A DNA stretch of 64,000 bases from Obrimoposthia wandeli. Its lineage: Eukaryota. The stretch is from assembly GCA_977020255.1 (NCBI GenBank), contig CDROCS010005425.1:62001-126000 (forward strand). Reading direction: 5' to 3'. A model generated the notes under the pieces. The model worked only from the letters and a program-made list of their open reading frames with translations. It did no database searches and was not told where the DNA came from. Shown in pieces: positions 4,101 to 64,000 of the stretch. A program made the translations under genes and the position numbers. How positions within the stretch are numbered: the first letter of the stretch is position 1; every line of letters begins with the position of its first letter.

Positions 4101-7100
4101 AATTATCACGGTTATCTTCATCCAGTAATTGAAGAAACTGTAAAACATATAGAACTCTATAAAAGAAAGAAAAGACAATGCTAAATGTAAAGTTTGATAT
4201 AAATAATATGGTTTTGAAATCCGTCCTTCAATTTTTGATTTAATACATTTTTTAAATCTCTACATTTACAGTTGTCACTCTGTGCTTTTGCGCTTTTAAT
4301 ATAAAACGTACACATTGGAAATTGTATAATAGATCATTTTGAAAGTATAGTTAAATGAACCTATAGCTCATGTAATTTATGTTGGTTTTTAAAAGTTCTT
4401 TCTAATTTTATATTTTTTTATTCTTGTTTACATGTTCTATCTGTTTTATTTCTTTGCGAGACCATGGTTAAATTTTAATCAAATACGCAACCAATATTTT
4501 TAATTTGCTATTAAATTCAATAAATTCGATAACTGTGAGGACTGCCATCAATTTATCAATATTTTTGTTGAACCGAATAAATTAGCTTCAGTTTAGTTCG
4601 CATTTAATTTCAAAATTATATTGCTTTATTTATATATAATCACAACATCGAATTCAACAGGTAATTTTGCAATAAAGTTTCTGTTTGTCTCATACAATTT
4701 GAGAATAAAATTAATCCAAGTATGGAACCCCGTGGAACGGCTGACTTTACAAACTGGTGTTTTGAAATATAATCACCAATATCAACAACTTGTTTCCGGG
4801 TAACTTTAAACCAATCTAATTCGACGTTCAGTACACCTATTTCCTATTATTCATTTGATGGTTGTTGTGTTTTGGGAAAATTCGTTGTTTAAAGCAGCTC
4901 AACAAACACCTGTTTTCGTTGTCATTACTGTTTTCTTCATCCGTTAGCTTCCGGATTAAGTGGTTAGTGCTAAAACATTGTAAATATATATTAGGCCACA
5001 TCGTAAAAAGGAAAAGTTGAAAATCTAATCTATACCAGTGATCGTTAGGTGCACTATCTCGATCTTATTGTGTTTGCAAATCCTCAGATCAATCAGATGT
5101 GATCTAACCCCCACACATTGGACTTTTATAGTACTACTTCTAGTAGATAAGTTCGTGAAAAAAATAAAAGACACTATTAAAAGCATTTTCAACATACATT
5201 TTTATCAAAAGGTTTATAAACATTAAGGAAACTGTTACGTTAATATTTAAAATATTTCTTTGATCGAAAGAAAGGGGACATTTTGTTTCTTGAAAATTGT
5301 GTAGATCAAATATATTAGATGACGACACTCTCTCCCAAAAATTCCCTCCGATTTTGCATATTGAAATTTACCATGTTTCCAAGCGCTTGAGAATATATAT
5401 TTACATTAGTTGTAATTATTTTTAAGAGAAAATCCCCAAAGACAGTGAAATATCTTTTTGCTGTTGTTTTGGTTTTTCATTCAATTTACTGAACTATTTT
5501 GCCTTCTTTTTAATCAGAGGGAGTAAAAATAAATCCATCTCCCTAACCTTTTTGGAAAAGAAGGTAATATAGCATAAGCAGGTTAACATGGTTGTATGTG
5601 TACAGAGGTTGATAGAGGGTTGGCAAGTAAAAATTTAGCCTCATCCATAAACAAATAAGGGAAATAAAAAACTGAAACAAGACCCAAAAAATCCGTAAAC
5701 CTAATCCATTTATGGAAAAGACCTTATCCCAGAAGAAATTACACCCAATGGCTTTTAGACCCCCCTCGTGCAACAGGATTACACAAAAAATAAAATTACA
5801 AACGGTATTAAAACATGTCAACTAAAAAACGATTAATGGTAACTAGACTAACTGAATAACCACAGAATAATGTTTAAAGCTATGTTTTCGAATAATCAAG
5901 AAACGACATAATTTTTACTTCTAAATATCTAAACAACATGTGGAACTTTTTATTTGTACCAAATTTACATTTCATTGAATGTTTTTGGTTAACTCCGTTT
6001 TTTGCAAAGTCGGTGAATCCAAAATAATTTCCCACTGAAGATGGGCATTAAATTTTGTTCTTGAGAATTAATTCGTTATATCTGGGTATGTAATTTGTGG
6101 ACCTGACTGTAGTATAATTGATATGCTCTCTGCTATGATGTAGGTTATAGCATCAATAAATTTTACATCCTACTCAAAATGAGACGTTTATATCCTCAAA
6201 CCCGGCATCGAGGTCACAATTGAAACAGTTTGTGGCCATTGGATGGACTCCGGAAACGAGTTCTGACATTGTCACCAGCGGGAAATAAGTTCCGCATCTC
6301 AGTTTGGCTTACTGCTAACTGCTAGAGACTGCTTGATTGTTCATCTGGATCTTCTTTCCACACCGGAGCTTATGCGAAGTAGAGATAATACATTTAAATG
6401 ACACCTTCCTATTTTATTTGATTCATTTGTTTTATGTTGTTGAGAAACATAATTTGATACTATGGCTTCTCCTAGTTTTATCAAATAGTTTCGCTTTCTG
6501 TCTGATCTTTTCGAGTAGTCTGGAAAAACTAACTTATGGAGTATAAATGCATTGAAACATGAAAATTTAATAAAGTACATCTATAATATAATTGATTTTA
6601 TAATAAATGTAAATATAGATGAAAGTTGTCTTTTATATATTATCACTTTCCGATTCAATTTATTTAAACTAAAATTATTTCGAGAAATTTTAACAAATTT
6701 GTTCATTTTAACGAAAACAACTTTATTACATTTCATAATGTTCTTGTTTTTGGATAATTTCCCTTAATATCATTGGAAAATACTACTTAACATAAATCCC
6801 TAAATATATTCCCATAATATCGATTGTACTTTAATGCTCTTTGTAATTTGTCAAGATACTCTGTTTCTCTCCACACTTAATGTCTCAGTACGGAAACTTG
6901 AGAAAAATATATTTAACCTGACAAAACTTTACAATACACAGCCAAATTTTACAGAGAAGTAATTTAAAGTACACTTTCTTTATTATTATCTAATCTTTTT
7001 AAATGTTACGTTTCTAGACATATTTGTGAAAAATATCAGTTAAATTTTTCAGTAATCCTCAACAATTATCTGCTCTCCTTGAATACATACAAAACTATTG

Positions 7101-9594: not shown

Positions 9595-9883
9595 GAATTC
9601 TTTTTATAACATTTTCGTAATAAGCTGAACATTTACACTGATAATATGCTATTTCGTTAAAAGAAAAAGTTAAATTCGGTTTCAAGTATTTTAACGAGCA
9701 AAAAACTCTTCTAATTTTGCGCTACATTTATTCAAATTTTATTCGGATTATTCGATCAATATAATCGCAGTCCTATTCTCATTGACATTTCTAGAGATCC
9801 AATTTTGAATAAACAAGGCCGGCGTTTCCATTCTGGACAAATCCATGTGAAACATTGTCGAATTCCATTTACCGGGACATTTG
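9595..9883 (+). repeat. Dispersed repeat, copy 1 (inverted relative to 39022-39259)
   Basis: About 240 bp match the reverse complement of 39022-39259 (e.g. caaggccggcgtttccattctggacaaatcc vs ggatttgtccagaatggaaacaccggccttg). Confidence 0.8.
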
Positions 9884-26599: not shown

Positions 26600-27790
26600 A
26601 ATTGTCGCAGGACCCTGTGATGTTTTATGACATCATTCTACTTAGTCTGACAGGTACACTGGTCTTCTCCTCACTTATCCGGATCATAGAGCTGGACCGT
26701 CTGATCGTCTCGTGGGGCCACTATATTATAATTCTCGGTTGTTTCTTTGATAACCTTTGTCGCAGTAGGCCTTATGGGAAACATGGCGTGAAATGTCGTC
26801 GATATCTGTGTTAGTCGATGAATTTGTCCCTGTCACTGTTCATATCTTCCACTGACTTGTGCACCTTCCATATGTTGGCTTAGCGTAGACTTGGCTACTA
26901 GGACTGTACTAAGAGGCTTCAATCTCGTGATGAGGATATTCAGGAGACTCATTTCACTCGATCCAATTTCTTTTCCAATGTAGTGTTGTCAAAGTAAACT
27001 ATTTCAATTGAGCTTTTATTTGTTCGCACCGCCATTTTCTACTATGGTTTCGTTCTACTATCCCATGCCCCTGTGGGTGATGCGCACACCTGAAAAGTAG
27101 GTGCTCTCCAGTATTTGAAATTTTTTTGATAACGCGCATGAATTGTTACATAAATTTATTTTATTGATCCTCTTTCTAAGAAAATTTCACGCTGAACGTT
27201 CGATATATTCTCAGAATCTTCATTTGGTATCGTTTTCCAAATTGCAAAATGGCTTGTACCACTTTCCACAATTGTTAAATAAAATAAATCACAATAATGT
27301 GTAACATCGATTGCAAGATGGGACCATTTATCATCAACACTTAAACTCCTTTGCTCCCAAGATATCGGATTGGGATCAACAGATTTACACTTATGGCTAC
27401 TTTGAATTACATTGTTTTATTTTTGGTTTAGGACGACAGTTGTGAAAGTTGGAATGAAGAAAAATAAAAATGTCTTATGATCAGCATCACCTAGGCTTTG
27501 ATAGAACAGCATTTTTTTTTTCATAGAGACATTTAATATGCTGTTCTATCAAAGCCTAGGTTATGCTGATCATAATACATTTTTATTTTATTTATCTTCA
27601 TTCCAACTGCCGCAACTGTCGTCTTATTTAACCAGACTCTCGGAAATCGGGTGATTCTATCTGCTATGTTCTTTTCCGATCTTACACATGTCACGGAAAT
27701 ATTTATGTCCATTTCTTTTTGGATGTTTTTGATGGTACCTAGCCGTCTCTTTATTAGCAATTCAGAACTACCTCGAGCCTGGACTTAACT
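26600..27790 (-). mobile_element. Ty3/Gypsy pol relic (end of RNase H plus integrase)
   Basis: LLIKRRLG...SEKNIADRITRFP...WL; CKSVDPNPISWE...WSHLAIDVTHY; FRCAHHPQGHGIVERNH. Confidence 0.75.
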
Positions 27791-37576: not shown

Positions 37577-38155
37577 CTGCAGGAGTTTTTTTCAAAATGG
37601 CGTTAAAATGTTTGCTATTTTAAAACCATTTTTTCAAAATAAACTTCTAAATAAGGTTGAACTTTTTAGTGAAAGTAAAATTTTAAATGAAAAAAGTTTT
37701 TAAGTATTTTTAACAACTATATTATTAGGGGGATAACTTACAATTGGTTAGAGGAGCTAGTCTATTGGAAATTGGGAACTTGAGTGAATATCCTATTTTC
37801 TTCCACACGCACTAATCACAACATAACTAAGCTAATGTACAGGAAAATATAGAGTACACATAAAGTCGTAGTAAAATGTTAACTTTCTCATTTGGTAAAT
37901 TTTCTCTCCAAACACATTATAATTTTCAAAAAATTTGACATCGTATGTTTGTGGCTAAGCAATCTAAAATTATAATTAAAGCAACTGCACAAATAATTGT
38001 ATTAATTAAGAAAATATGAATAAATATTGACCAAATTTGTGTTGTGAAATAAACTTTATAATATATGTTTCTCGTTAGAACTACTAAAATTAAGGTAAAA
38101 TATTTGTGTCGAGCCGATATAGAAACTGTGGTTCCCTTGTGAGTGAAGGCTGTAC

Positions 38156-38538
38156 TTGGTGAGGCCATATGGGTCCACGGCAGCCATGAACGATTCGAGG
38201 GGGCAAGGTTTGCCCGGGTTACAGCCCAGCACACGAATAGGAGCCAGTGGCTGTTGCGGGGGTAAGGTGGTGTTCTTGAAGAAGACCTTAACGAAGTCGT
38301 GATGAGAGACATTGTCTCTGTGGAGCTCTAGGATGACAGCAGAGGCATACGGTGGCTGGAAGTGCGGCTTCTGAGTGAGGAGTTTCATGAGGGGAGCCAC
38401 GTCAGTGTCGTGTCCACTGTACATGTACAGACGCACTGGCGAGAAGCCGGGGTTTCGGGAGGCATTCCACATGTGGGTCACCACTTGTTTGAGCATGACT
38501 CCGCCCGCCATGCGCGCCAGATCATCCCAAAACATGGC
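38156..38538 (-). CDS. ACP2: Acid phosphatase exon 3
   Basis: ttgcag|GCC ATG, donor gtacag. Contains RMAGGVMLK, YSGHDT (catalytic HD), PPYASAVILELH and GCNPGKPCPLESF. Confidence 0.9.
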
Positions 38539-39021
38539 CTGCAAGAAGGATGGGGCTAAACAACAGTACAATGTCAGCTTTCCGGACAAATTTTAATAGA
38601 TATTGTTTCATTACATCAATATTAGTACGCTGTTATTGTGTCAATTGAAACATAGTATGAATATCGTGATTTAAATCGCTTCAGTTGTGTCTTTTACAGG
38701 TAAACAATTTTTATGATAGTGAATATTTTTATATACAGGGTAACAATTATTAAGGTAAAGAATTATTTTATTTTGTGTTGTTGCATCAAAAATCGGTAAG
38801 TAATAGGAGTAATAGGAGCAATCGGAGTAATAGGAGCAAAGAGCCAAATGTGCAGCTTGGTATGATCATTTTTGAAGAGTGGTTTTAGTTATATTACATC
38901 ACTTTTGTTAATGACACACTAATCAAAGGATTCTATAAACTGAAACAAAATGAATTTGCATCTGACGAGTTTGTATCTGTCTTTGTTTATTTGTTCAGAA
39001 GGTGATAATTGAAATTAAGTA

Positions 39022-39259
39022 CAAATGTCCCAGTACATGGGAATTCGACAATATTTCATATGGATTTGTCCAGAATGGAAACACCGGCCTTGTTTACTAA
39101 AAATTGGATCTTCGGAAATGTCAATGAGAATAGGACTGCGATTCTATTGATCGAATAATCAGAATAAAATTTGAATAAATGTAACGCAAATGAGAAAAAT
39201 AATAGCATATTTTTAGTGTAAATGTTCAGCTTATTACGAAAATGTTACAGAAAGAATTC
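39022..39259 (-). repeat. Dispersed repeat, copy 2 (see 9595-9883)
   Basis: Reverse-complement match to 9595-9883 with an internal indel. Confidence 0.8.
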
Positions 39260-42435: not shown

Positions 42436-42518
42436 CTGAAAGAGGATTGGCGGTAACAAGGCAACTCAGTACAATTAAAAATTAGCTAATTAATGTGATA
42501 TACTGTCATAAAACCCAC

Positions 42519-42923
42519 TTTCGAAACCGTATGAACGGGAACCGGTCTCCATTGCAATCCCGGAATAATAAGTTTCTTGTGCTCAAAAAAGATTCCTGCT
42601 AAATTTGATTCTGCTGACATTAGAGTCCTGTCAATATCAGAACTGCGGACATAAATCAGCGAAGTGTTGAAATTGTCGCCCAGAAAATCCGAATATCGCT
42701 TACGTAGCCACTGACCAAAGTAGAAATGCTCTCTAATCCCTTCCTCCGTTAACTGTCCCAAACCCTTCCAGTGATCAGCTTTAATGGGGTCGGTAGGGAA
42801 TACAGCTAACGGTGCTCGATCTCCGTGTCGAAAAATTACTTGTACTTGTAACAATTTACTTTCTACCATAGATTGAACATGGAATAAAACTATGGTTAAA
42901 AATAAAACATTCAATTGATACAT
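42519..42923 (-). CDS. ACP2: Acid phosphatase exon 1 (signal peptide plus RHGxRxP)
   Basis: ATG, hydrophobic leader, RHGDRAP catalytic motif, GQLT, YVRSSDIDRTLMSA, PVPVHTV; donor gtgggt. Spliced product is 418 aa, the size of a clade-2 histidine acid phosphatase; ACP2 orthology is not proven. Confidence 0.93.
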
Positions 42924-49094: not shown

Positions 49095-51542
49095 TGTAGA
49101 TATTAACAATTCTATTTATATCATACCCTATTAAAACGTTGTTTTAATATTGGTAATTCATGATAAAAATACATTTTGAATATATCGGTATTTTTAGTCA
49201 TTTTAAATGTTTGACGAAGACTCAGAACCAAACCACAAAACTGGTGTCAGCAGTGACTGTAGTGACAGTAGTATTCACTGCTCAGCTATTCATTTCAGAA
49301 TGCATCCCTTCTCAACAAACGCCACACTATGGTTCCTTTAAGTTGAAAGTGCATTCAAAATATTAAAAATTTCCTCAGAAGAAAATAAAATGCAACATCT
49401 CTTATGCAGCATCACTTTTGAGTTTCAAGATTTTCAATATGTTGCTGAAAGGAAATGTGATAGGCCATAATCGGAACTCAAAGAAACGATGCTAAAAAGT
49501 GCGGACATTGCCTTACAGAGGTTCAATGGGATTAAATTGTTGGAGATCAGAAACCTTCGGAGTCTTTAAAAGAAATGCAGAAGCTATTCAGAATTTTTAA
49601 CGCCTATGTAGAATCTGACATTATGCTTACCAGTAGTTTCAAAGCGCTACTTCCAATGCATACACGATCTCTGCTGCTGTGTACACATTTCAATAGCCTG
49701 TCTGGAATGACATTATTTTCTGATAAAGCAATACGGCTCGTGGATCAGAATGATGCAATCCAACAAGTGAAACACAAAGTTTCGCATTCCTATACAGATA
49801 CAGTGTCAAAATCAGAATCAACATTTATAGATTCTTTATGTTTTTATCATAAAACGTTTTGTCCAAAAGCCAGAATATGAAGAAGCCATGCTCTTGGAAT
49901 CAAAAATGTATAGTAAACTAGATGGAGGACCAGAAAGCCTGAGATCTGTCTCCTCCGCATGGGCGAATTTAGCACATATCTCAGGTCGACCAATCTTCAA
50001 TATCAGAGCAGTGGTAAATCAAGTTCCTGTAAATATTTTAATATACACTGGTGCTGACAGAAGTATTCTACCAACAAGGTTATTTACTCCGAATTCTTTC
50101 GAAGTTGGTTGTCAATTAATGTCTGCTAATGGATCGTCAATTCAAACAAAAGGGTCACTTGAGCGTTTATCAAGCTTCCCAGGATAGACGAGATTTTCAA
50201 TTGTACTTTTATGATTTCAGATATTCAACAACCAATTCTTGGGCAGATTTTTTATAATTGTATAATTTTACAGTTTCATGTTATAATAAATCCTTGTTTC
50301 GTCGTAAGTATCAAAAAACAGTAAATGGATTACAACCATAAGTTCGTTTTATTGGACACACAGCCTCAATAGATCATACCACCCTCAGAACACAAATGTT
50401 CATTAATACAGAAGGATCGCCAGTAACTATGAAGTCCAGAAGACTATTCGGTGAAAAGCTAGAATCGGCAAAATTGGAGTTTGATAAACCTCTAGCCGAA
50501 GGTTTCATACAGCCAAGTAACAGCCAATGAACATCTACATTCGTATAGTTAAAAATTTAGATGGAACATGGAGACATTGCGGGAATTATAGAGAGCTCAA
50601 TAAGACGCTTCCGGATCAATACCCTCTGCCAAGAATTCATGATATGTTAGACAAGCTTAGAACAGCTAAATTATACAGTAAAATTGATCTAGCTAAAGCA
50701 TTTCATCAAGTTTCAATTGCAGAAAGAGACGTCAACAAAACCGCTATAATAACTCCCTTTAGTCTATTTGAAAACAAAATGATGCCATTTGGATTAAGGA
50801 ATTGCTCAGCCGTGTTTCAGAGGCTTATGGATGAAGTGCTGCAAGAGTGTCAAGAATTTGCAGCTTCATATATTGAAGATATCATTATATTTCTAAAGAT
50901 AAAATAGACCATCAAAAGTATTTAAACAAAGTATTTGCTTAATTTTAAAAATACAACTTAAGTATCAAAGAAGAAAAATGCCACTTGAATCAGAATAGTA
51001 TCGAGTTTCTAGGATTTTAAGTATATCCTATATGTATATGTCCAGCTGGTCTACGAATACCAGATTACATGGGGATATAATTTCAAAGTTTCTATCATAA
51101 TCTCTTTGAACATAATCAATTAAGAGACTGATCGAGTACTTCGAAATCACAGAAGAGAGAAGGCCAACCAGTCCCAAATCGTTCGTCAATAAAGATCTGA
51201 CGACATGTACATTTGTTTAGATTTGAGTAGAAGTTCCAAACAGATTTCAAAATCTTTATCATGGTCCTTACGAAGTAATGAAAATATGCTCTGATCTTAA
51301 AACATTCAAGCTCAAAATTGGCACTTAAACACAAAATTATTGGATCAATCGTTTGAAGCCGGCTTATGTCATTGACTCTTATACTTTAATAAGGGAGTGG
51401 TGTAGATATTAACTATTCTATTTATATCATACCCTATTAAAACGTTGTTTTAATATTGGTAATTCATGATAAAAATACATTTTGAATATATCGGTATTTT
51501 TAGTCATTTTAAATGTTTGACGAAGACCCGAACCAAACCACA
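49095..51542 (+). mobile_element. Internally deleted Ty3/Gypsy element with 143-bp LTRs
   Basis: LTRs TG...CA at 49095-49237 and 51401-51542 (nearly identical); PBS TGGTGTCAGCAGTG at 49242 (tRNA-Leu-like); PPT AAGGGAGTGG before each LTR. Protease relic ILIYTGADRS, RT (KIDLAKAFHQ, MPFGLRN, YIED) and integrase C-terminal GPY motif; RNase H and integrase core are deleted. Confidence 0.88.
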
Positions 51543-53086: not shown

Positions 53087-53584
53087 ATGACTTGTTGTGA
53101 TAAAGCGAGTTATAACGAAGATCTTGAGAATTTACCATCGTTTGCATCAAGCTCAGATGTAATGGAACTAGATGATTTGGACTTTTTGCTATCAATTAAT
53201 CTTGACGATGATCTGACTTTATCATACTCTGATATGGAAAGAAACATTCACAGTGATATAATTAAAACTGAAACAATTCCGAATTCTGATAATTCACTTA
53301 CTAATGTGCCTGATAACATTCTCCTTGATCTTCCTATAAAACATCTGAATAGTATTTTTAAAAACTCCAAATGTAACCTTAAAGAATTGAAACGTAAACG
53401 AAGAACTCTGAAGAACCGTCTATATGCTCGAGAAAGTCGGACGCGGAAGCAAACACAGCGTGCAGAAGTGCAAACCACTTCTGAACAGTACAAGACTGAG
53501 ATCGAAAAGCTCTATGCTCAGATGAATCGACTGAGAATGGAACGCGATCACTATAGACACCTCTACAACACAAGGATGCAGTAA
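53087..53584 (+). CDS. Maf: Maf-family bZIP transcription factor (divergent)
   Basis: DNILLDLPIKHLN (Maf extended homology region, cf. DEELVSMSVRELN) plus LKRKRRTLKNRLYA (Maf RRTLKNRGYA) and ERDHYR. Acidic N-terminus. The ATG directly follows a ttttag acceptor, so an upstream exon is likely. Confidence 0.88.
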   Translation: MTCCDKASYNEDLENLPSFASSSDVMELDDLDFLLSINLDDDLTLSYSDMERNIHSDIIKTETIPNSDNSLTNVPDNILLDLPIKHLNSIFKNSKCNLKELKRKRRTLKNRLYARESRTRKQTQRAEVQTTSEQYKTEIEKLYAQMNRLRMERDHYRHLYNTRMQ

Positions 53585-55217
53585 ATCAGACGATTTGCTT
53601 CCTATTTGTCGATGCTCAAACTCTCGAAAAAACCACTAGAATTTATCCAATTTCCTTTAAACATTTTTCCTAAGTTTATATTTGGAGAAGTTTGTGAATT
53701 TGTACATATCAATTCAGATATTTCTAATACTGTTTCGGGATTTTGAAAGTCGGCTCATTGGAACTAACTCGCTCTTGATCGATCAGCGGCAACACCAACA
53801 AATCACCAGAAAGACCACTGCATCAGCTAAACTCGATATTCAACTCGCCTGCATTTAAACCTAAATAAATTCTCTCTTAACCCACACCGAAGTGAGCGTG
53901 TTGCGACAATTTCGTGCGCAGCTTCTCGGGGAAGAGAGGGAAATTATTTTTCAACTATCAATTTTAAAATATGTTGCAAGAGATTCTTTTGTGAGAGAAA
54001 AACGGCAGAAATACATGACGCAGAAATACAATATATATTACAAAAAAAGGCGCAACCAATTTTAGCACCAGTCACAGTTTTATATAAACGCCTTTTAGAG
54101 ATTAAATAACGCCTTTTGTTTATATTTTTACTTTGATTTTAAATAGTCTACGACTCTGTTTTTAGTTTTTATGTCACTGTGTTTCTCTTACACGAGTACT
54201 TTCTTATGCAACATTGATATCAAACTTAATTAATGTCAGATTTATACTATTGTACACTGTCCTGAGTGCCGCCGCGGTTTCGGGTGCAATCTCTCTTAAC
54301 CCTGCGGCACTCGGTATTTAACTCGATTTGATAAGATTCCAATATTGTACCATTTATTTTTCGATTCTTTGTCGCCTTGTTTTTCTGTAACATTATTTTG
54401 CTTACTGAATAAATCGATTACGGCATTGAACTCTACTTGTTCTGTAAGTCAGCTGTTGTACTGCACACCGCTACTCACACTGACGTAAACTCTACATTTC
54501 TCTGTCTCAAAATGACTGTCAGAAAATGACCTTGCAGTGTACTTGAACTTAAATATGTCTGCGTGTGTGTGTGCTTCACCAAAAGAGACTTAAGTGGTTT
54601 TTGTAGTCGACAGAGTCATATTTCATTTGACTACATTTATTTGGAAAATTGAATAAGAAAGTACATAATTATATAACGCAAATGTAAGTATTAATTTGGT
54701 TCCTGAACAATACGTATTCATTTACACGAACTTGACTACAAACAAATTTAAATATGAAGCGGAGTATTGAGGAAATGACACAAAAATCACAATAGAACAA
54801 AACCAAACTTTGTAAGTCATGGGTAAAAAGTTTGATAGTCTATATTTCCCTTTCACACTAGATGGGTATTAAACGTCTCATACTGCTAAATAAAGGGTAA
54901 ACCCTAAAGCAAGATTTAAATCAATAATATAAATATTTTAGAATTAAAAAATCCAGATTTTTATCAACCATCACTGACTATTTTATCATATTAATACATA
55001 TTTCACTTTATTAAAACAAAGCAGTCATGGATATCATATTTCGAATCCCAAGCCTATAAAACCCCAAAGAATCAAGGGTTAATACACTTTCTAGTCGTCA
55101 GTTGAGTCATGGTATAGAAGCATTTCCATTAAAAATACAAAATAAGTAAATATTAAATATAAAGGTAAATATTAAAAAGGTTATTACTCAAAAATTTCAA
55201 TTTTAAAATATGTTGCA

Positions 55218-56200
55218 AGTAGGTAGAAGGATGGAGTCTAAGCCATTTGACCCCCCTGTGTGCGCACACCAAGTTAAAGGGTGGTGTGCGCACACCAAAT
55301 TAAAGGGTGTCACACCATAAGGGTGTCTTGCCACACCATAAGGGTATATGTTGCCTCACCATAGGGGTGTCACACCATAAGGGTATATGTTGCCTTACCA
55401 TAGGGGTGTCACACCATAAGGGTATATGTTGACTCACCATAAGGGTGTCTTGCCACACCATAAGGGTCTGGCTCAGAAAGTTTATGATAGGGGGGAGGGG
55501 GGAAGGGTCAAGTGGCTTAGTCTCCAACCTTCTTTGGTATACCACTATGGTCGTCCATAAATCAAAGGGTCGGACTCAGTTTTGACTTGAAGGTTTTAAG
55601 GTATGGTCATGACCGTCTATGGTTGGCCATCACATCTAAAGGGTTGTGGTCGTCCATAAATCAAAGGGTCAAGGTCAGTTTTGACTTGAAACTTTGAAGG
55701 TATAATTAAGGTCAACTATGGTTGGCCATCACATCTAAAGGGTTGTGGTCGTCCATAAATCAAAGGGTCAAGGTCAGTTTTGACTTGAAACTTTGAAGGT
55801 ATAATTAAGGTCAACTATGGTTGGCCATCACATCTAATGGGTTGTGGTCGTCCATAGGTCAAAGGGTCGGGCTAAAAATTTTTATTTTTTTTTAAATATC
55901 AAGGTTTTAGTACATGGTTGGAATCATCTTTGGAAGGTGAATTCAGTCATAAAGTATGGTCGGTCATATATGAAGGGGTCGGGATATAGACCAAATCAAG
56001 TTTTAAATGTCAAAGTTTGAATACATGGTTGTAATCATCTTTATAAGACGAATTCATCCATATAGGTATGGTCGTCCATAGATGAAGGGTTAAAAAAAGT
56101 TGGAATTTCATAGTTTCAAGTACATGGTTGTATTCGTCAGCATATTACGAGTTTATTCATGTAAAAATTGTATGGTCGTTCACAAGTTAAGGGTCAGATT
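55218..56200 (+). repeat. Polinton terminal repeat, copy 1
   Basis: Starts AGTAGGTAGAAGGATGGAG. Contains short gtgtcacaccataagg-type units, a G-run and about 99-bp subterminal repeats; homologous to 63402-64000. Confidence 0.85.
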
Positions 56201-56839
56201 TGTCATAAATTAAGAAATTATATAGTATTCAATCAATTATTCTATGTGAAAGTTCACTATTAAAAGTTAAGGAATGTATTACGTAATCATACACATGTTG
56301 GGGTTTCTATACGAGACTTGTACAGATCCTCTTGTGTGCGGAGGGCCCCAACGTGAGTTCTAATAGAAGCAGGTCTTAAAGTTGGTCGTGGCCTACTTAG
56401 TGCTATGGTTGCCTGTCTCGATTACTTATCTGAAGGTGTTTGTTTTGACGTCTCTTAATCTGAAGGGTTTAAAAACCACGTTTTCTAATGTAGGAAATCG
56501 TTTATTGGTAACACACTAGACTAAAACACAACAATACGTTTATGTACGTATCTTCTAAAAAGTATAGTAAAAATTCCTAAGACTTCTGTAAGTCTCTACA
56601 CGAGTGGGTATGAACCACGTATCGATTTTACTTAGGTGTAGTTAGTTTGTTTGGGTCTTCCTAGTATTTTGGGGGGTTTCCTAGTATTTTGGTGATTACA
56701 CAAAATCAAAGTTTGCTCTAAATTAGAGAGTCTTTCTAATAGCTGGCGGTTACAACTTTCTCTAATTTATGGAGAATTTCCTTTGAATATAACTTTACTT
56801 TAATTCAAATTTCGTCTCAACTCGCTCGTAAACACTTTC

Positions 56840-57332
56840 AAAAACTCAAGATAATTTTAATTCAAATTTCGTCTCAAAAACTCAAGATAATTTTAATTCA
56901 AATTTCGTCTCAAAAACTCAAGATAATTCTAATTCAAATTTCGTCTCAAAAACTCAAGATAATTTTAATTCAAATTTCGTCTCAAAAACTCAAGATAATT
57001 CTAATTCAAATTTCGTCTCAAAAACTCAAGATAATTTTAATTCAAATTTCGTCTCAAAACTCAAGATAATTTTAATTCAAATTTCGTCTCAAAAACTCAA
57101 GATAATTTTAATTCAAATTTCGTCTCAAAAACCCAAGATAATTTTAATTCAAATTTCGTCTCAAAAACTCAAGATAATTTTAATTCAAATTTCGTCTCAA
57201 AAACTCAAGATAATTTTAATTCAAATTTCGTCTCAAAAACTCAAGATAATTTTAATTCAAATTTCGTCTCAAAAACTCAAGATAATTTTAATTCAAATTT
57301 CGTCTCAAAAACTCAAGATAATTTTAATTCAA
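56840..57332. repeat. 36-bp minisatellite, about 13 copies
   Basis: Unit aattcaaatttcgtctcaaaaactcaagataatttt. Confidence 0.97.
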
Positions 57333-57369: not shown

Positions 57370-57640
57370 AATTTCTGGTAGCTGGAGATAATGCTGTTAG
57401 TTACTGGATTTCTGGTAGCTGTAGATAATGCTGCTAGTTACTGGAGAGGATTTCTGGTAGCTGTAGATAATGCTGCTAGTTACTGGAGAGGATTTCTGGT
57501 AGCTGTAGATAATGCTGCTAGTTACTGGAGAGGATTTCTGGTAGCTGTAGATAATGCTGCTAGTTACTGGAGAGGATTTCTGGTAGCTGTAGATAATGCT
57601 CTAGTTACTGGATTTCTGGTAGCTGTAGATAATGCTGCCA
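57370..57640. repeat. 42-bp minisatellite, about 6-7 copies
   Basis: Unit gatttctggtagctgtagataatgctgctagttactggagag. Confidence 0.95.
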
Positions 57641-58264
57641 ATTACGGGAGATTTGATTCCAATTCGGAGGGAGTCGCTGCCCGATCTGGTTCGAAGTGCT
57701 GTTAGTTGTTTTTTCTTCCAATTCACTGTGTTGACTTATATAGTCAATTTGAGGCGATTTGCACCTGGCCCTTGAACGTCAGTTAATAATTTGGCTAAAA
57801 AATAATATGCCTACTTTGCTGACTGTCAATCTTCTTTTCTGCTGACTTTGCTGTTTTCTTGATTAATTTTCTTTTTTCTCTTTTCTTAATTAACTTCTTT
57901 TTTTGCTGACAGTGCTATTTATTTTTGCACTTTTACTAGTTAATTTTAACCTTATATATAACACATTATACACGACCTTCGTGGTCCTCTTAATATTTAT
58001 TCCTATTTTAGTCCTAATAATTTAACTTGATTTTAAAATTAAAATTAATTTAATTCTCAACCTTGCTTTCAAGTATTTTTATTTTACTATAAAACAATTA
58101 TTTATTTTTAATTTTACTCAAAACCTAATCTTAACACACACACTATTCTATGTGAAAATTTAGATCAAAGTTTTTTCCAGGCTTATGCATCTAAAGAAAT
58201 ATGGTAAAATTTATTTAAATAACATAAATTATATATTAAAATAAAATATCCTTAATAAATATAT

Positions 58265-58718
58265 TTATATACAATTTACATAATCAATACATAGAGAAAA
58301 ACATTTCAAATAAGCACAATGTTTTCCGTGTTTTCTAAACGGACATCGAATATTTTTGTGGCATTTTCTTTAAATTTTTGAAACTTTTATTATAATTCAC
58401 AATTCTCAAATTTGGAAACATTCGTTTCACTAAATTAATTTTCTTTCCATCAATAGAATCCATAACATAGAATATTGTTTCAACATCATCAATATGAATA
58501 TCAGAGCTTTCACCTTCAAACCAGGATAACTGATGATGATGATTTATCAAATATAGATTTTTTCTTTTAACTGTAAATGATAAACTACTCCATGGTATTT
58601 GATTTTTAAACACGTAATGAAATGGACAAGTCATATCATTCACATACATTATACATAATTCCTTTGGAATATATTCTCCATTATTATCAATAAAACATTC
58701 TAAATCAATAAAAGCCAT
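58265..58718 (-). pseudogene. Polinton-associated DEDD-exonuclease-like protein, frameshifted near 3' end
   Basis: N-terminal FIDLECF (DxE ExoI-like), PKELCI and HHQLSWFEG. An alternative frame continues KCHKNIRCPFRKHGKHCAYLKCFSLCIDYVNCI* after a shift in an A-run near 58365. Confidence 0.5.
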
Positions 58719-58769: not shown

Positions 58770-59108
58770 TTATTTGTGTTGAAGTTTCAACCATAAAAGA
58801 CTCAGAGGTCCGCAGTTTATAGTTAATGGATTCTGACATTTAACTCGATTATAGTAGACTGGAATGTTTTCTTTTTCAAGTGTAGACACCAACTTTGAAG
58901 GATAATAGAATCCAAAAGGATCAAACACTCGAATCTCGAATCTGTCAACGAATATTGCTATCCAATGTTCGCCTGGTAGATTTGAAGTATGAGTATTGAT
59001 AATGTAGCCTCCGGGTTTTAATGATGGAATTTTATCCAATGAATATACTCCATTAAATTTGTTATTCAATAATATTTTTCCGGATTTATAAATTTCTAAA
59101 GTACTAAT
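58770..59108 (-). CDS. Adenain-like cysteine protease (Polinton PRO); ATG apparently mutated to ATT
   Basis: NTHTSNLPGEHWIA (His), FDPFG (Asp), CQNPLTINCG (Gln/Cys). The frame is open upstream to ATT-AGT-ACT-TTA-GAA-ATT (cf. MNTLEI) at 59108. Confidence 0.9.
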   Translation of the reverse strand: MSTLEIYKSGKILLNNKFNGVYSLDKIPSLKPGGYIINTHTSNLPGEHWIAIFVDRFEIRVFDPFGFYYPSKLVSTLEKENIPVYYNRVKCQNPLTINCGPLSLLWLKLQHK

Positions 59109-59142: not shown

Positions 59143-60363
59143 TCATACAATCACAGTTTTATTTTTCGTAATCTGAATTTCAGAATCAAATATTCCGTAA
59201 ATCAAAACACTTGTTGGAACAACCAAAGGAGAATTAAATCTAATTTCAAGTCTTAAATTACCAGTTTTAGGCACTTGAGTAGTGTTTATATCAAAATCTG
59301 GTGCTAATAGAAAAGTGAAAATCGAACTTCCTGATTTAAAATCAGAAAATCTGATACCATTATTCAAGTTTTTATCTAAAATATTCATATTTCGAATAAT
59401 TGACTGCATATATGCTAATGAAAAATTGTTATTATCTAGATTATAAGTTTCTCGATAATCTGTATTTCTAGCTAATGATATTGTTGAAACATTAAATGTA
59501 TTGAACGTAGAAGATTTAACTTTGTATTCCTTACCACCCTGAGGTGTATCTTTGAAAGCAATCAAAATGAACTTGGGTAAACGATAGTCTCCGAATATTT
59601 GATCTTTATTATGTTCCAAAGAACCCTGAGGAATTGAATATGTTACTAACTGAGTTTTTCTAATTGGGTAAACTGCATTCTGACTTTGCAAACCTAACTG
59701 ATGTCCAATCATTACTGAAGAATCAACTTTTACTCTTCTAACATACAATCTAGCATCTACAATTTGAATAATTGGTTTTGAAGTTTCTGAATAGAGCGAA
59801 AGATTATGCTGATTTCTCATAAATCTCAAATGAACATTAATCCCTGGAATCAAATATTTTGGTTGATCAAAAAAATCTAATCTAATTGAATTACACAATG
59901 AAAATATTTTAGATTCACTAATCCATTGTTTACGATCTTTTGCATCATCATCATACCCGGAACATTCAAGGTTAGTATACTTGGTATCACTACTAAAATT
60001 CAAAAGAGTATCGAATATAGCCTTATGAGTATACGTTCCATTTCCTCCTTCAACCTTTACATTATTAAGTGTTAGAATAACATCTCTAAACAAAGTTTGA
60101 AACATGTAATTCTCTGGAGTTACATCGTTATCTTTCATTAAATCAGTACCATCTTCATTTACAACTTTTAATTTAATATTTAACAAAGTATCATTCAAAT
60201 CCAGATAATCTTCTTCAGATGCATGAATATTAAATTCTATGTCATTTAAATTTCCACCAGTAATTGAATTGATTGGAAATATTTCTTCAAAACTTGAATT
60301 TTCAATCACTACTTGAGGTAGTGGTCTATCGAAAATACACAATTCAGATTTTATACTAGTCAT
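59143..60363 (-). CDS. Polinton major capsid protein (double jelly-roll, PY/hexon-like), intact 406 aa
   Basis: KSELCIF...IEFNI...DYLDLNDTLLNIKLKVV, DFFDQPKYLIPGINVHLRF, ARLYVRRVKV and GNLRLEIRF match the Polinton MCP pattern as recalled. Confidence 0.92.
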   Translation of the reverse strand: MTSIKSELCIFDRPLPQVVIENSSFEEIFPINSITGGNLNDIEFNIHASEEDYLDLNDTLLNIKLKVVNEDGTDLMKDNDVTPENYMFQTLFRDVILTLNNVKVEGGNGTYTHKAIFDTLLNFSSDTKYTNLECSGYDDDAKDRKQWISESKIFSLCNSIRLDFFDQPKYLIPGINVHLRFMRNQHNLSLYSETSKPIIQIVDARLYVRRVKVDSSVMIGHQLGLQSQNAVYPIRKTQLVTYSIPQGSLEHNKDQIFGDYRLPKFILIAFKDTPQGGKEYKVKSSTFNTFNVSTISLARNTDYRETYNLDNNNFSLAYMQSIIRNMNILDKNLNNGIRFSDFKSGSSIFTFLLAPDFDINTTQVPKTGNLRLEIRFNSPLVVPTSVLIYGIFDSEIQITKNKTVIV

Positions 60364-60760
60364 TTTTGGAAAATAGTACCTTTAAGACGTTTGTTTATAC
60401 TATTTAAATGATTTCTTTTTACGTTTAAGACCCTTTCCATTTTGTTCAACACAATTTGCGACTTTATTTAAACTCTCAACAGCATTATTTTTTAATTTTG
60501 GAATCAAAGTTTTGCCTTCTTTGATTGTATTTTCTTTGAGAGTTGAAATTAAGTTTTTGGATTTGTTAACGCAGTTCCTCCCGTTTCGCCAATTGCATTG
60601 GCAGCACTTGTAGCTGCTGATAAACCAGCTTTTTAATAAATGGAATAGCTAATCTAGAAATAGTTTGAAACCAACCAGATCCATATTGCTTACCAATGAA
60701 ATAAGGAAGTTCACCGCCCTGTTGACTTTTGCTATAAAATTTTATAATTGATGTATTCAT
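60362..60760 (-). pseudogene. Small conserved Polinton core/membrane-lytic-like protein, frameshifted
   Basis: QQGGELPYFIGKQYGSGWFQTISRLAIPFIKK (conserved QxGG.LP.F.G..Q.GxG amphipathic motif). Continues after A-run frameshifts as AGLSAATSAANAIG...EQNGKGLKRKKK. Confidence 0.65.
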
Positions 60761-60788
60761 TTTTATATTTTAAATATATTTATATTGT

Positions 60789-61802
60789 TTATACTTTACG
60801 TAAATGAAGAGTTAAACTAGTTTTTGCTCCATATGAAAATGGAATTAAATTACCAGAATCATCAAGTATATTTACCTCGATTCTATTAATACTTGAATCT
60901 CTCATTTTCAAGTACATTGGATTATCAATTTTAACATTTACTACATCTCCATATCGATATTTTAATGATTTTAACCAAATAGACTTTAACAGTGGAACAT
61001 AATCAGATCCTACTAAGACAGAATCTGTTAAACTAGTATAAATATACATTTGATTATATGAGCTAGAAAGTGTTGGTTCTTGAAAACCTTTAATTCGTTT
61101 CTCAAAGAAAACATTATTTAAACCTAATAAAGATGCAAGTTTTTCGTCAAATAAAACTGATTTTACATTTTTCTTTATTAAAATATCAAATTATCCGTTT
61201 GAATCTATATTACAGCTTTTAAAAATCGCATTACATTTACTGGCTATAATATTACATAATGAAGAACTATCTTGTATCAAATAATTTTGATTAAATTTTA
61301 TTTCATATTCATATTCAGCTAAAGAATAAATTGTAATTCTCATTTTAGCATGAATATTTTTATTTATGTCAACAATTTCATCACTTGTTATAACATGACT
61401 AGAAATTTTTTGTATTTCATTAAAACCTATAATTTTTGATTCTTCTAAAGATTCGAATTTTAACAACATTCGATGAATACTGTTAATTGTACTTATTTCT
61501 AATTTTTGATCCTTTGTAATTTTGAAATTGAAAACATTATTTAAATTATTAAAAATTAATCCATTTAAAATTGCAAAAGATACATCGAAAGTTTTCATTT
61601 CTATCTTTTCTGTTTTATAAAGTATTTTTGAATTAGTTTGTATTGTTAAAGGAGTATAATTAAATACAAATTCAGTCAAGGCAACCTCCCATTCACCATC
61701 TAAATTTAGAGAGTTTTCCCAATCTACAGTAAATTGATTGGCTGTATTGTTAGGTTGAGTACTTGGACAACTATTACTAGGTAAAATAATATATTTTGAC
61801 AT
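60789..61802 (-). pseudogene. Polinton minor capsid protein (penton, PX) split by one nonsense codon
   Basis: YIILPSNS...LDGEWEVALTE and YIYTSL...VGSDYVPLL...IEVNILDDSG...LHLRK. The two ORFs are in the same frame, separated only by TAA at 61191-61193. Confidence 0.9.
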
Positions 61803-62591
61803 TATTCAATTTGAGAAGCAAATATCCAAGAAGGTTCAGAGTATCCGTGCCACTTTACGTAATATTGTTTATTCTTACCACGACCTTTAGTTTCTAAAAT
61901 TTCTTGTATTCGATATAGTTTAGGTTTATCAATTAATTGTAACTCTTGTTTATAAAATTTTCCTTTGATGATGACGTTATCAATATCTTTTAAAATATAC
62001 ATTATTGGATTTTGTTTATAATTAATATCATGAATTTGAAAAACCTCATAACTCCAATTTTGATTAAAATTTTTAATAAATGGACTTGTACTTATTTTTG
62101 ATATTCGAACATAATCATCAATTTTATATTTAGATTTAACTTTCTTTTCTTTTGGATTTTGTTTCAACCAAATTTCAAATGCATTTTTATTATTTGCATC
62201 TACAGGTTTTAAACCATCTAAACCTCTATGTTTAGAATTATTATAAGCATAAATAATTTTTGGTAATACATTCACCCGATTTTGATTTAATACCAACTGC
62301 CCTTGCAAAACGACTAAATACATCAATACAAGTTAAAATATACTTGAATCCGTTATTTACTGAAGAATAAGGTATCATTTCCATTAAATCCATCTGCCAT
62401 AAGGAATTAATATCATTAGTTTTATATGATCTAGTAGGAAATTTACGTCTTAAAGGTTTATTCAAACTATATGATAATTCATTTCTTAACCATTTTTGTG
62501 TGTTTGTTTTTGATTGTTTGACTCTTTTTGTCAATTTTTCTAACCCTGTATACCCGTCTGGATCTTCTGGATTGTTCCAAATCTTTTCCAT
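61802..62591 (-). pseudogene. Polinton retroviral-like integrase with chromodomain, catalytic core deleted
   Basis: WQMDLMEM...YILTCIDVFSRFA, then a frameshifted join to VLPKIIYAYNNSKHR...VRISK...WSYEVF and chromodomain QYYVKWHGYSEPSWI. Confidence 0.92.
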
Positions 62592-62921: not shown

Positions 62922-63198
62922 ATGAATACGTGAGTTTATTATATATATATATATATATTTTTTTAATTATGATTTATATTTAGATTTAATTGCCAAATAT
63001 GTCAAACAGGACCAATGAATAATAAATATTCAATGGATGCTCATATGCAGAGTAAGAAACATAAAAAGTAATTTTTTTTTCCTTTTTAAAATTAATTTTA
63101 ATATTGTTTTTAGACTAGCAGCCGCGGTAATGATTCCTACATCAGCATCAACAACAATGGTTCCTGGTACATCGGGAGAATCTACTTCAACATTTAAT
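62922..63198 (+). CDS. Small spliced gene encoding a U1/matrin-type C2H2 zinc finger (exons 62922-62929, 62984-63067, 63114-63198; last exon uncertain)
   Basis: GT-AG introns of 54 and 46 bp with consistent phases give MNTFNCQICQTGPMNNKYSMDAHMQSKKHKKLAAAVMIPTSASTTMVPGTSGESTSTFN (C-x2-C-x13-H-x5-H, SKKH). Third donor gtaagt at 63199. Confidence 0.75.
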
Positions 63199-63401
63199 GT
63201 AAGTTTCTTATTAATGTTACTTTGTAAGACTCTTATATAATTTTATAATTTTTTTTTAAAACTTCTAACTTCTTGAAGTTATAAGACCAGCTATTACTGA
63301 TGCTATAGCGGGCAGTATGGCCAATAGGAATCCGCCATTTTGATTATAAATAATGTTTCTTTTATTAATTTTACCACGTGAATTTGCTAAATTTATTAAT
63401 G

Positions 63402-64000
63402 AGTAGGTAGAAGGATGGAGTCTAGATCACTTGACCCCCCACCCCACTGTGTGCGCACACCAAGTTAAAGGGTGTCACACCATAAGGGTGTCACACCATA
63501 AGGGTGTCTTGCCACACCATAAGGGTATATGTTGCCTCACCATATAAATGTCACACCATGAAGGTATATGTTGACTCACCATAAGGGTGTCACACCATAA
63601 GGGTATATGTTGCCTCACCATAAGGGTATGGCTCAGAAAGGTTAAGATAGGGGGAGGGGGGAAGGGTCAATTGATCTAGTCTCCACCCTTCTTTGATATA
63701 TCACTATGGTCGTCCATAAATCAAAGGGTCAAGGTCAGTTTTGACTTGAAACTTTGAAGGTATAATTAAGGTCAACTATGGTCGGCCAACATACCCAAGG
63801 GGTTGTGGTCGTCCATAATTCAAAGGGTCAAGGTCAGTTTTGACTTGAAACTTTGAAGGTATAATTAAGGTCAACTATGGTTGACTAACACATCTAAAGG
63901 GTCATGAACGTCCATAAATCAAAGGGTCAAGGTCAGTTTTGACTTGAAACTTTGAAGGTATAATTAAGGTCAACTATGGTTGGTCATCACATCTAAAGGG
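63402..64000 (+). mobile_element. Second Polinton terminus in the same orientation (runs off the window)
   Basis: Starts with the identical AGTAGGTAGAAGGATGGAGTCTA and has the same internal repeat architecture as 55218-55860, but is not identical. Confidence 0.88.

Follow-up and report, generated by a model that had tools for sequence, protein, structure and literature searches.

Each of the two Polinton/Maverick termini in the window (the whole 64-kb stretch of DNA analysed here) carries a 29-bp fold-back stem that begins directly inside the element tip, and the two arms of this stem are coupled between the copies; the stem is real and beyond chance, and selection on it is unproven. Reading along the forward strand, the left arm of copy 1 (55225..55253) pairs with its right arm (55505..55533), and in copy 2 the left arm (63409..63437) pairs with the right arm (63664..63692), with 26 of 29 Watson-Crick pairs in each, exactly as a sequence-only reading of this DNA had claimed. 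Dinucleotide shuffles of 55218-55545 (n = 200) gave at best 21 pairs for a 29-mer (mean 17.5), against 26 in the real stem. The DNA fold z was −5.9 for the copy 1 region and −3.0 for the copy 2 region, 0 of 100 shuffles being as good, and only six stems with at least 24 of 29 pairs (span ≤1 kb) occur in the 64-kb window, both copies included. Mean pair probability of the stem was 0.84-0.89 on either strand in both copies, and with both strands computed no strand preference of the fold was seen. Stem positions 17-19 are switched in both arms, AGC:GCT in copy 1 against GAT:ATC in copy 2, as had also been reported. The "conserved mismatches" of the same reading hold for place more than for kind: the non-Watson-Crick positions 7, 13 and 22 coincide in both copies, but the mismatch is identical at 13 only (T.T), position 7 being A.A in copy 1 and A.C in copy 2 and position 22 being T.G and C.T. 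An extension of the stem by the flanking C-run and G-run, proposed earlier, is present in the copy 1 fold.

Architecture of the terminus

Homology between the copies begins 7 nt outside the stem, at AGTAGG (55218 and 63402), and extends through the 99-bp repeats to the window end. The tip of element 1, AGTAGGT (55218..55224, forward strand), has one Watson-Crick match in seven against the opposite bases, is identical to the tip of element 2 (63402..63408, forward strand), and is unpaired in the folds of both copies. The copy 1 loop (55254..55504, forward strand) consists of a C-run, an array of 16-26-nt AAGGGT...CACCAT units and a G-run. A loop made of palindromic short repeats had been described, and the array of AAGGGT-led units agrees with this, but a clear fold advantage over shuffles is confined to the loop of copy 1 (z −2.2/−5.8, vs. 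+0.7/−1.2 in copy 2); 29 of the 43 AAGGGT-led motifs in the window lie in the terminus. Opposite the tip is a perfect 10-bp palindrome (55535..55544; 63694-63703 in copy 2), where a fourth two-sided change, additional to those noticed at first, keeps it perfect in both copies. Its one-sided, unpaired form is present at about 50% of contig depth, and this palindrome is therefore not under strict pairing constraint. The 99-bp subterminal repeats follow (55548..55868, forward strand; 3.2 units, each with small hairpins, unit fold z −5.1/−3.5), with decayed units persisting to about 56200, and in copy 2 the palindrome is likewise followed by 99-bp repeats that run off the window (63694..64000, forward strand). 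Fold z of the 99-bp units ranges from −3.4 to −7.3, and small hairpins are frequent throughout the terminus. The start of the right arm resembles a 99-bp unit, a likeness limited to its first 10 nt (14 of 2000 shuffles with these 10 nt, 366 of 2000 without them); the right arm as a full homologue of the unit was rejected, the likeness being gone beyond that point.

In some contigs the unit of the right arm occurs as a tandem repeat (joints 55558/9 to 55503), and terminus architecture varies within the family. The sequence TCAAGGTCA, which we take to be an FTZ-F1/SF-1-type nuclear-receptor site, recurs in the 99-bp repeats at 55669, 55768, 63729, 63828 and 63927 (five of six window matches, 0.5 expected), these five occurrences being copies of one repeat. 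A canonical four-run G-quadruplex was considered and rejected, with no match.

Identity of the element and the nested insertion

Element 1 is a Polinton/Maverick by its capsid fold, integrase and protease. Its double jelly-roll capsid gene (59143..60363, reverse strand) has 172 homologues, and the capsid model (pLDDT 84.8) matches iridovirus, PBCV-1 and mavirus capsids in Foldseek (E 1e-16 to 5e-15); by sequence profile the same gene had no PDB match. We compared the element with 88 related loci, 70 from metagenomes and 18 viral. The rve-chromodomain integrase, split over two frames (61802..62591, reverse strand; rve E 8.6e-6 and Chromo E 9e-4, both below cut-off), matches whole integrase ORFs there with 35-68% identity in its region, and the weak adenovirus-type cysteine protease (58770..59069, reverse strand; Peptidase_C5 E 0.003, below cut-off) has 34-60% identity in related loci at a conserved position. 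A conserved Polinton ORF that ends early (58335..58718, reverse strand) has tblastn/tblastx matches in related loci and no Pfam match. Two further conserved genes are in pieces (60566..61802, reverse strand); from gene order, 60789-61802 is the putative "minor capsid" and 60566-60760 the putative "PZ". The gene order (capsid, integrase, protease) is common to 5 of the 23 longer related loci listed. Where relatives have accessory genes or the polymerase, element 1 has a 36-bp tandem array (56838-57332) and a 42-bp array (57371-57651). Four relatives (L005, L008, L020 and L059) carry a 1,147-1,364-aa polymerase just past the protease region, assigned in L005 only from its position, its size and a shared domain, and the window contains no match to these protein-primed family B polymerase ORFs; with no polymerase trace in the window, element 1 is therefore a defective derivative and not an autonomous member. 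Relatives encode a pPolB of the Endonuclease-VII type and an ATPase of the A32 type; a packaging ATPase had no match in the 64-kb window, and that of element 1 may lie outside it, its place in relatives being beyond the gene cut by copy 2.

This cut gene, a small conserved Polinton gene of which the 3′ part is left (63280..63399, reverse strand; tblastx), has matches in 11 of the 70 metagenome loci and lies upstream of the integrase in those that have one. It is broken at 63399-63401, the exact start of copy 2, and copy 2 is therefore the terminus of another element that has inserted into element 1. The copies share one orientation and are two same-direction ends; their interpretation as LTRs, or as a TIR pair from a single element, was rejected on this orientation and on the cut gene. 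As the 64-kb window shows a single end of each element and no inverted partner of the terminus, we base the label "TIR" on position, boundary and likeness to (AGT)2: AGTAGG is a 5/6 match to it, with a sharp depth boundary there, and the part of PMC8097293 consulted gives the Polinton end motif as (AGT)2 or (AG)3.

Several other features were seen. Within the element, at about 62922-63198 (forward strand) and divergent from the integrase, lies a small spliced gene in which a Cys/His pattern like that of a zinc finger can be seen by eye, and in the related element L031 a TATA-binding-protein-like ORF (6466-6966, Pfam TBP E 9e-18) directly follows the capsid module. Elsewhere in the window there is a MITE-like fold-back of about 200 bp with long inverted arms (27429-27626), a pair of inverted repeat copies 29 kb apart (9595-9866 and 39040-39259, 93% complementary), and, beside a 2,306-bp-spaced direct repeat, a bZIP Maf ORF (53087-53584), histidine phosphatase exons (38056-38589 and 42486-42923) and a reverse-transcriptase fragment (50527-50907).

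Abundance and population variants

Four of the six sequencing runs with this region, all from one sample, carry 76-78% of its words. For depth and variants we aligned contigs of two runs of the same sample (X3 and X4) on 55130-55680; runs X1 and X2 were excluded as evidence for their small shares, X1 giving seven contigs and X2 none. Contig depth rises across 55206-55224 from 5-30 in the flank to about 1e5-1e6 inside the element, a depth that does not equal copy number and that, corrected for word overlap, is still roughly 900-4,000-fold. The terminus (55218-55680) is thus unusually abundant, four to five orders above the flank in contig depth, as many genomic copies or as free genomes. If the 309-bp fold-back were instead an independent MITE or Helentron-like element, nested at the terminus, it would have 29-bp inverted ends around a tandem array and might explain the very high abundance, but depth remains high over the tip and past 55534, the tip and the downstream repeats are common to both copies, there is no target duplication beside the arms, and the TC...CTRR ends of Helitrons (PMC6544945, in the part consulted) are missing. 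With no independent boundaries we rejected the fold-back as its own MITE, and the nested-element explanation as a whole is barely credible.

Of the variants, 40 are listed and 19 are not; the listed 40 fall 20 in the loop, 20 downstream and none in the 58 arm bases (naive P 0.005), array cross-mapping inflating the loop and downstream counts and clustered variants possibly being clipped in alignment. Variants at 50-84% flank the right arm (55481, 55485 and 55537). Set against the non-array flanks only, the deficit in the arms falls short of significance (4 common variants in 100 nt vs. 0 in 65, P 0.07). In our reading of the X4 change tallies, the variants listed account for every C>T, T>C, T>A, A>T and A>C change; in both arms these changes thus stay under 2%, and mismatches 7 and 13 therefore persist across the family. 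Arms of the copy 2 type are either uncommon in the population or lost to clipping in alignment, and as the contigs are unphased they add no covariation evidence.

Coupling of the two arms

Wherever the left arm differs between the copies, at four positions, the right arm differs too (P ~2e-4 under independent placement); the arms therefore do not evolve independently, and exchanging them between copies lowers pairing to 23/29 and 24/29. This covariation evidence consists of two haplotypes only. The four left-arm differences are confined to 6 nt (P 0.01), positions 1-16 and 23-29 being identical between the copies, and at position 22 the copy 2 left arm pairs with the copy 1 right arm. Because of this clustering and cross-pairing, one copy-over between the arms, halting short of mismatch 13, accounts for the four left-arm differences without selection. 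Arm-to-arm copying is the scenario that the sequence-only reading had set against itself, and it accounts for all four left-arm differences at once, but it leaves mismatches 7 and 13 in place and gives no account of the missing common variants in the arms. What stands of that reading is the Polinton context, the arm coupling and a structure separate from end-to-end pairing; its claim of selection on a hairpin of ~300 nt goes further than two haplotypes and one 6-nt change cluster, a known template-switch outcome, allow. Whether selected or neutral, the arms presumably must sometimes pair physically.

It is distinctly possible that the stem is a neutral by-product. In that case a subterminal unit would long ago have been duplicated in inverse orientation to give the arms, template switching or conversion would copy short tracts, the mismatches would merely be inherited from recent master copies, and pairing would be useless to the element. 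The single 6-nt cluster and position 22 fit a copy-over tract, the right arm starts like a 99-bp unit and is in tandem in some contigs, and template switching between inverted arms gives adjacent multibase compensatory changes and arm homogenisation in the consulted parts of PMC8794818 and PMC8604942. Six of the 14 copy differences lie in perfect palindromes of at least 6 bp in copy 2 vs. 2 of 14 in copy 1, on a background of 24/145 and 11/145 respectively, a post hoc, clustered and weak comparison. On the other hand, no common variant is found in either arm and several are found in the flanks, mismatches 7 and 13 were not erased, the stem lies exactly at the tip, and the right-arm likeness covers only 10 nt. 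Template-switch (quasi-palindrome) mutation likewise changes adjacent bases in both arms at once (PMC8794818, PMC8604942, as far as the parts consulted describe), but usually with short spacers and perfected arms; spacers in the yeast study were ≤70 bp (PMC8604942, same limit), whereas here the spacer is 225-250 nt and three mismatches remain.

The near-identity of the left arms would also suit an inverted pair of double-stranded binding sites, for a protein of the element or of the host, that brackets an array of shorter sites, with positions 17-22 a free spacer matched by occasional conversion; the terminal concentration of AAGGGT-led motifs (29/43) and of TCAAGGTCA (5/6, within the 99-bp repeats) points the same way. 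Binding alone needs no complementarity in the spacer, however, and 29 bp is long for one site, making this explanation improbable. Less probable still is that the stem functions in a short non-coding transcript of the terminus. A precedent would be the adenovirus VA RNAs, and transition-only compensation suits RNA stems, but Rfam gave no match at E up to 1 and one wobble favours each strand; none of the six runs carrying the region is on record as RNA.

Other copies and earlier reports

Exact patterns of the terminus had no matches in viral contigs and prokaryote genomes; phage records gave no match either, and queries with the capsid and the polymerase led to no confirmed viral contig. Apart from short AT-rich matches, nothing in the 70 metagenome loci matched the terminus at the nucleotide level, and across their 243 AG-led motif sites the best reached 17 of 22 pairs vs. 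20 for both window copies. Paired TIRs were absent from the eight long metagenome loci (of 70) that were self-compared and from all 18 viral loci. The stem scan covered related loci of at least 3 kb, and these scans are uninformative on the stem because the contigs stop short of the element ends. Long local hairpins do occur near contig starts of relatives (L020 794-957, L059 85-219, L026 31-104), away from any recognisable tip. In the literature on Polinton, Maverick and adintovirus ends, as far as the parts consulted go (with supplements, the founding papers of 2006-2007 and Repbase outside the scope), no stem inside one Polinton end is described, and "hairpin" has no occurrence in the main text of the Maverick and adintovirus papers searched, PMC8097293 included; PMC11296320, 10.1101/2023.08.22.554363, PMC6431247, PMC8502044 and PMC8363768 also belong to this basis. 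A fold-back stem inside a Polinton end is thus apparently undescribed.

Comparison with known systems and a model

The comparisons below draw on the consulted parts of the sources cited. Element 1 is like Polintons/Mavericks (adintoviruses) in its DJR capsid, rve integrase, protease, gene order and AG-led end motif near (AGT)2 (PMC8097293), and differs in having no polymerase or ATPase in the window and AGTAGG as its end motif. The Polinton replication model has end-to-end "racket" pairing (PMC4196379), whereas here the fold lies inside one end. Polinton polymerases carry a terminal-protein domain (PMC11071308). Origins of phi29, PRD1 and adenovirus resemble this terminus in a short terminal repeat, protein priming (PMC11071308) and a displaced single strand, but in those systems the duplex origin is either the end of the genome or a panhandle joining both ends. 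Even for PRD1 and adenovirus, such panhandles are said to lack direct evidence (PMC11886824). Streptomyces Tpg/Tap telomeres share terminal-protein-primed ends and a single-stranded 3′ part in conserved fold-backs, and indicate that terminal-protein systems can read fold-backs (PMC5449611). They differ in that a palindrome occupies the terminal 13 nt, as part of a group of seven tight hairpins, replication starts internally and the system is bacterial; here there is one long-range stem with a free tip and no terminal palindrome of that type.

The interpretation that we favour, tentatively and a little short of even confidence, is a fold of the single-stranded end, kept by selection and maintained by copy-over. 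Protein-primed strand-displacement replication would leave one strand single, and each single-stranded end would then fold locally into the 29-bp stem with a loop of ~250 nt, the terminal 6-7 nt unpaired beside the duplex. At a 3′ end this could act as a cap, or give terminal-protein priming a fork that is already open, and the element's far end would not be needed. Such pairing would also let the polymerase switch template from arm to arm, most economically giving the three-pair change in one step, and selection on the end would keep the arms otherwise fixed. We infer the single-strand stage, the copy-over event, the selection and the role as origin or cap. Consistent with such a selected end fold are the significance of the fold, the coupled arms, the 0/40 listed variants in the arms, the persisting mismatches 7 and 13, the hairpin-rich terminus and, by analogy, phi29 and Streptomyces. 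A role of the stem as origin would follow the phi29 analogy, where origins are strongest with six unpaired end nucleotides (PMC4150772); phi29 origins whose non-template strand is extended at its 5′ end, the nearest geometry to the one proposed here, are markedly weaker (PMC4150772), however, which counts against it. Also against the selected end fold stand the two haplotypes behind the covariation, the clustering of changes in 6 nt, the P of 0.07 for arm conservation against non-array flanks, the one-sided palindrome form at ~50%, the lack of strand preference and the decay of element 1, which is without a polymerase; moreover, the stem is known from one family, with no recognisable end in any of the 88 related loci. 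The role in integrase recognition that had been suggested is without support in this analysis. The end-to-end duplex is far more stable than the local stem (−448 vs. −68 kcal/mol), and the local stem can therefore win only kinetically; it would form faster than the end-to-end duplex.

Taken further, some animal Polintons may start displaced-strand replication at a local fold-back fork and not at an end-to-end racket, a single end being a self-sufficient origin, although we consider this unlikely. If true, it would help to explain the thousands of ends, including those of polymerase-less and nested elements, and would make available the first defined Polinton origin to test. In the parts of the literature consulted, initiation of Polinton replication is a model and not an observation (PMC11071308, PMC4196379, PMC11886824), and a conserved fold at the tip is a small, concrete substrate for a first biochemical test of initiation. 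If the stem is instead neutral, it is a warning that adjacent "compensatory" changes in the ends of mobile elements may stem from one template switch.
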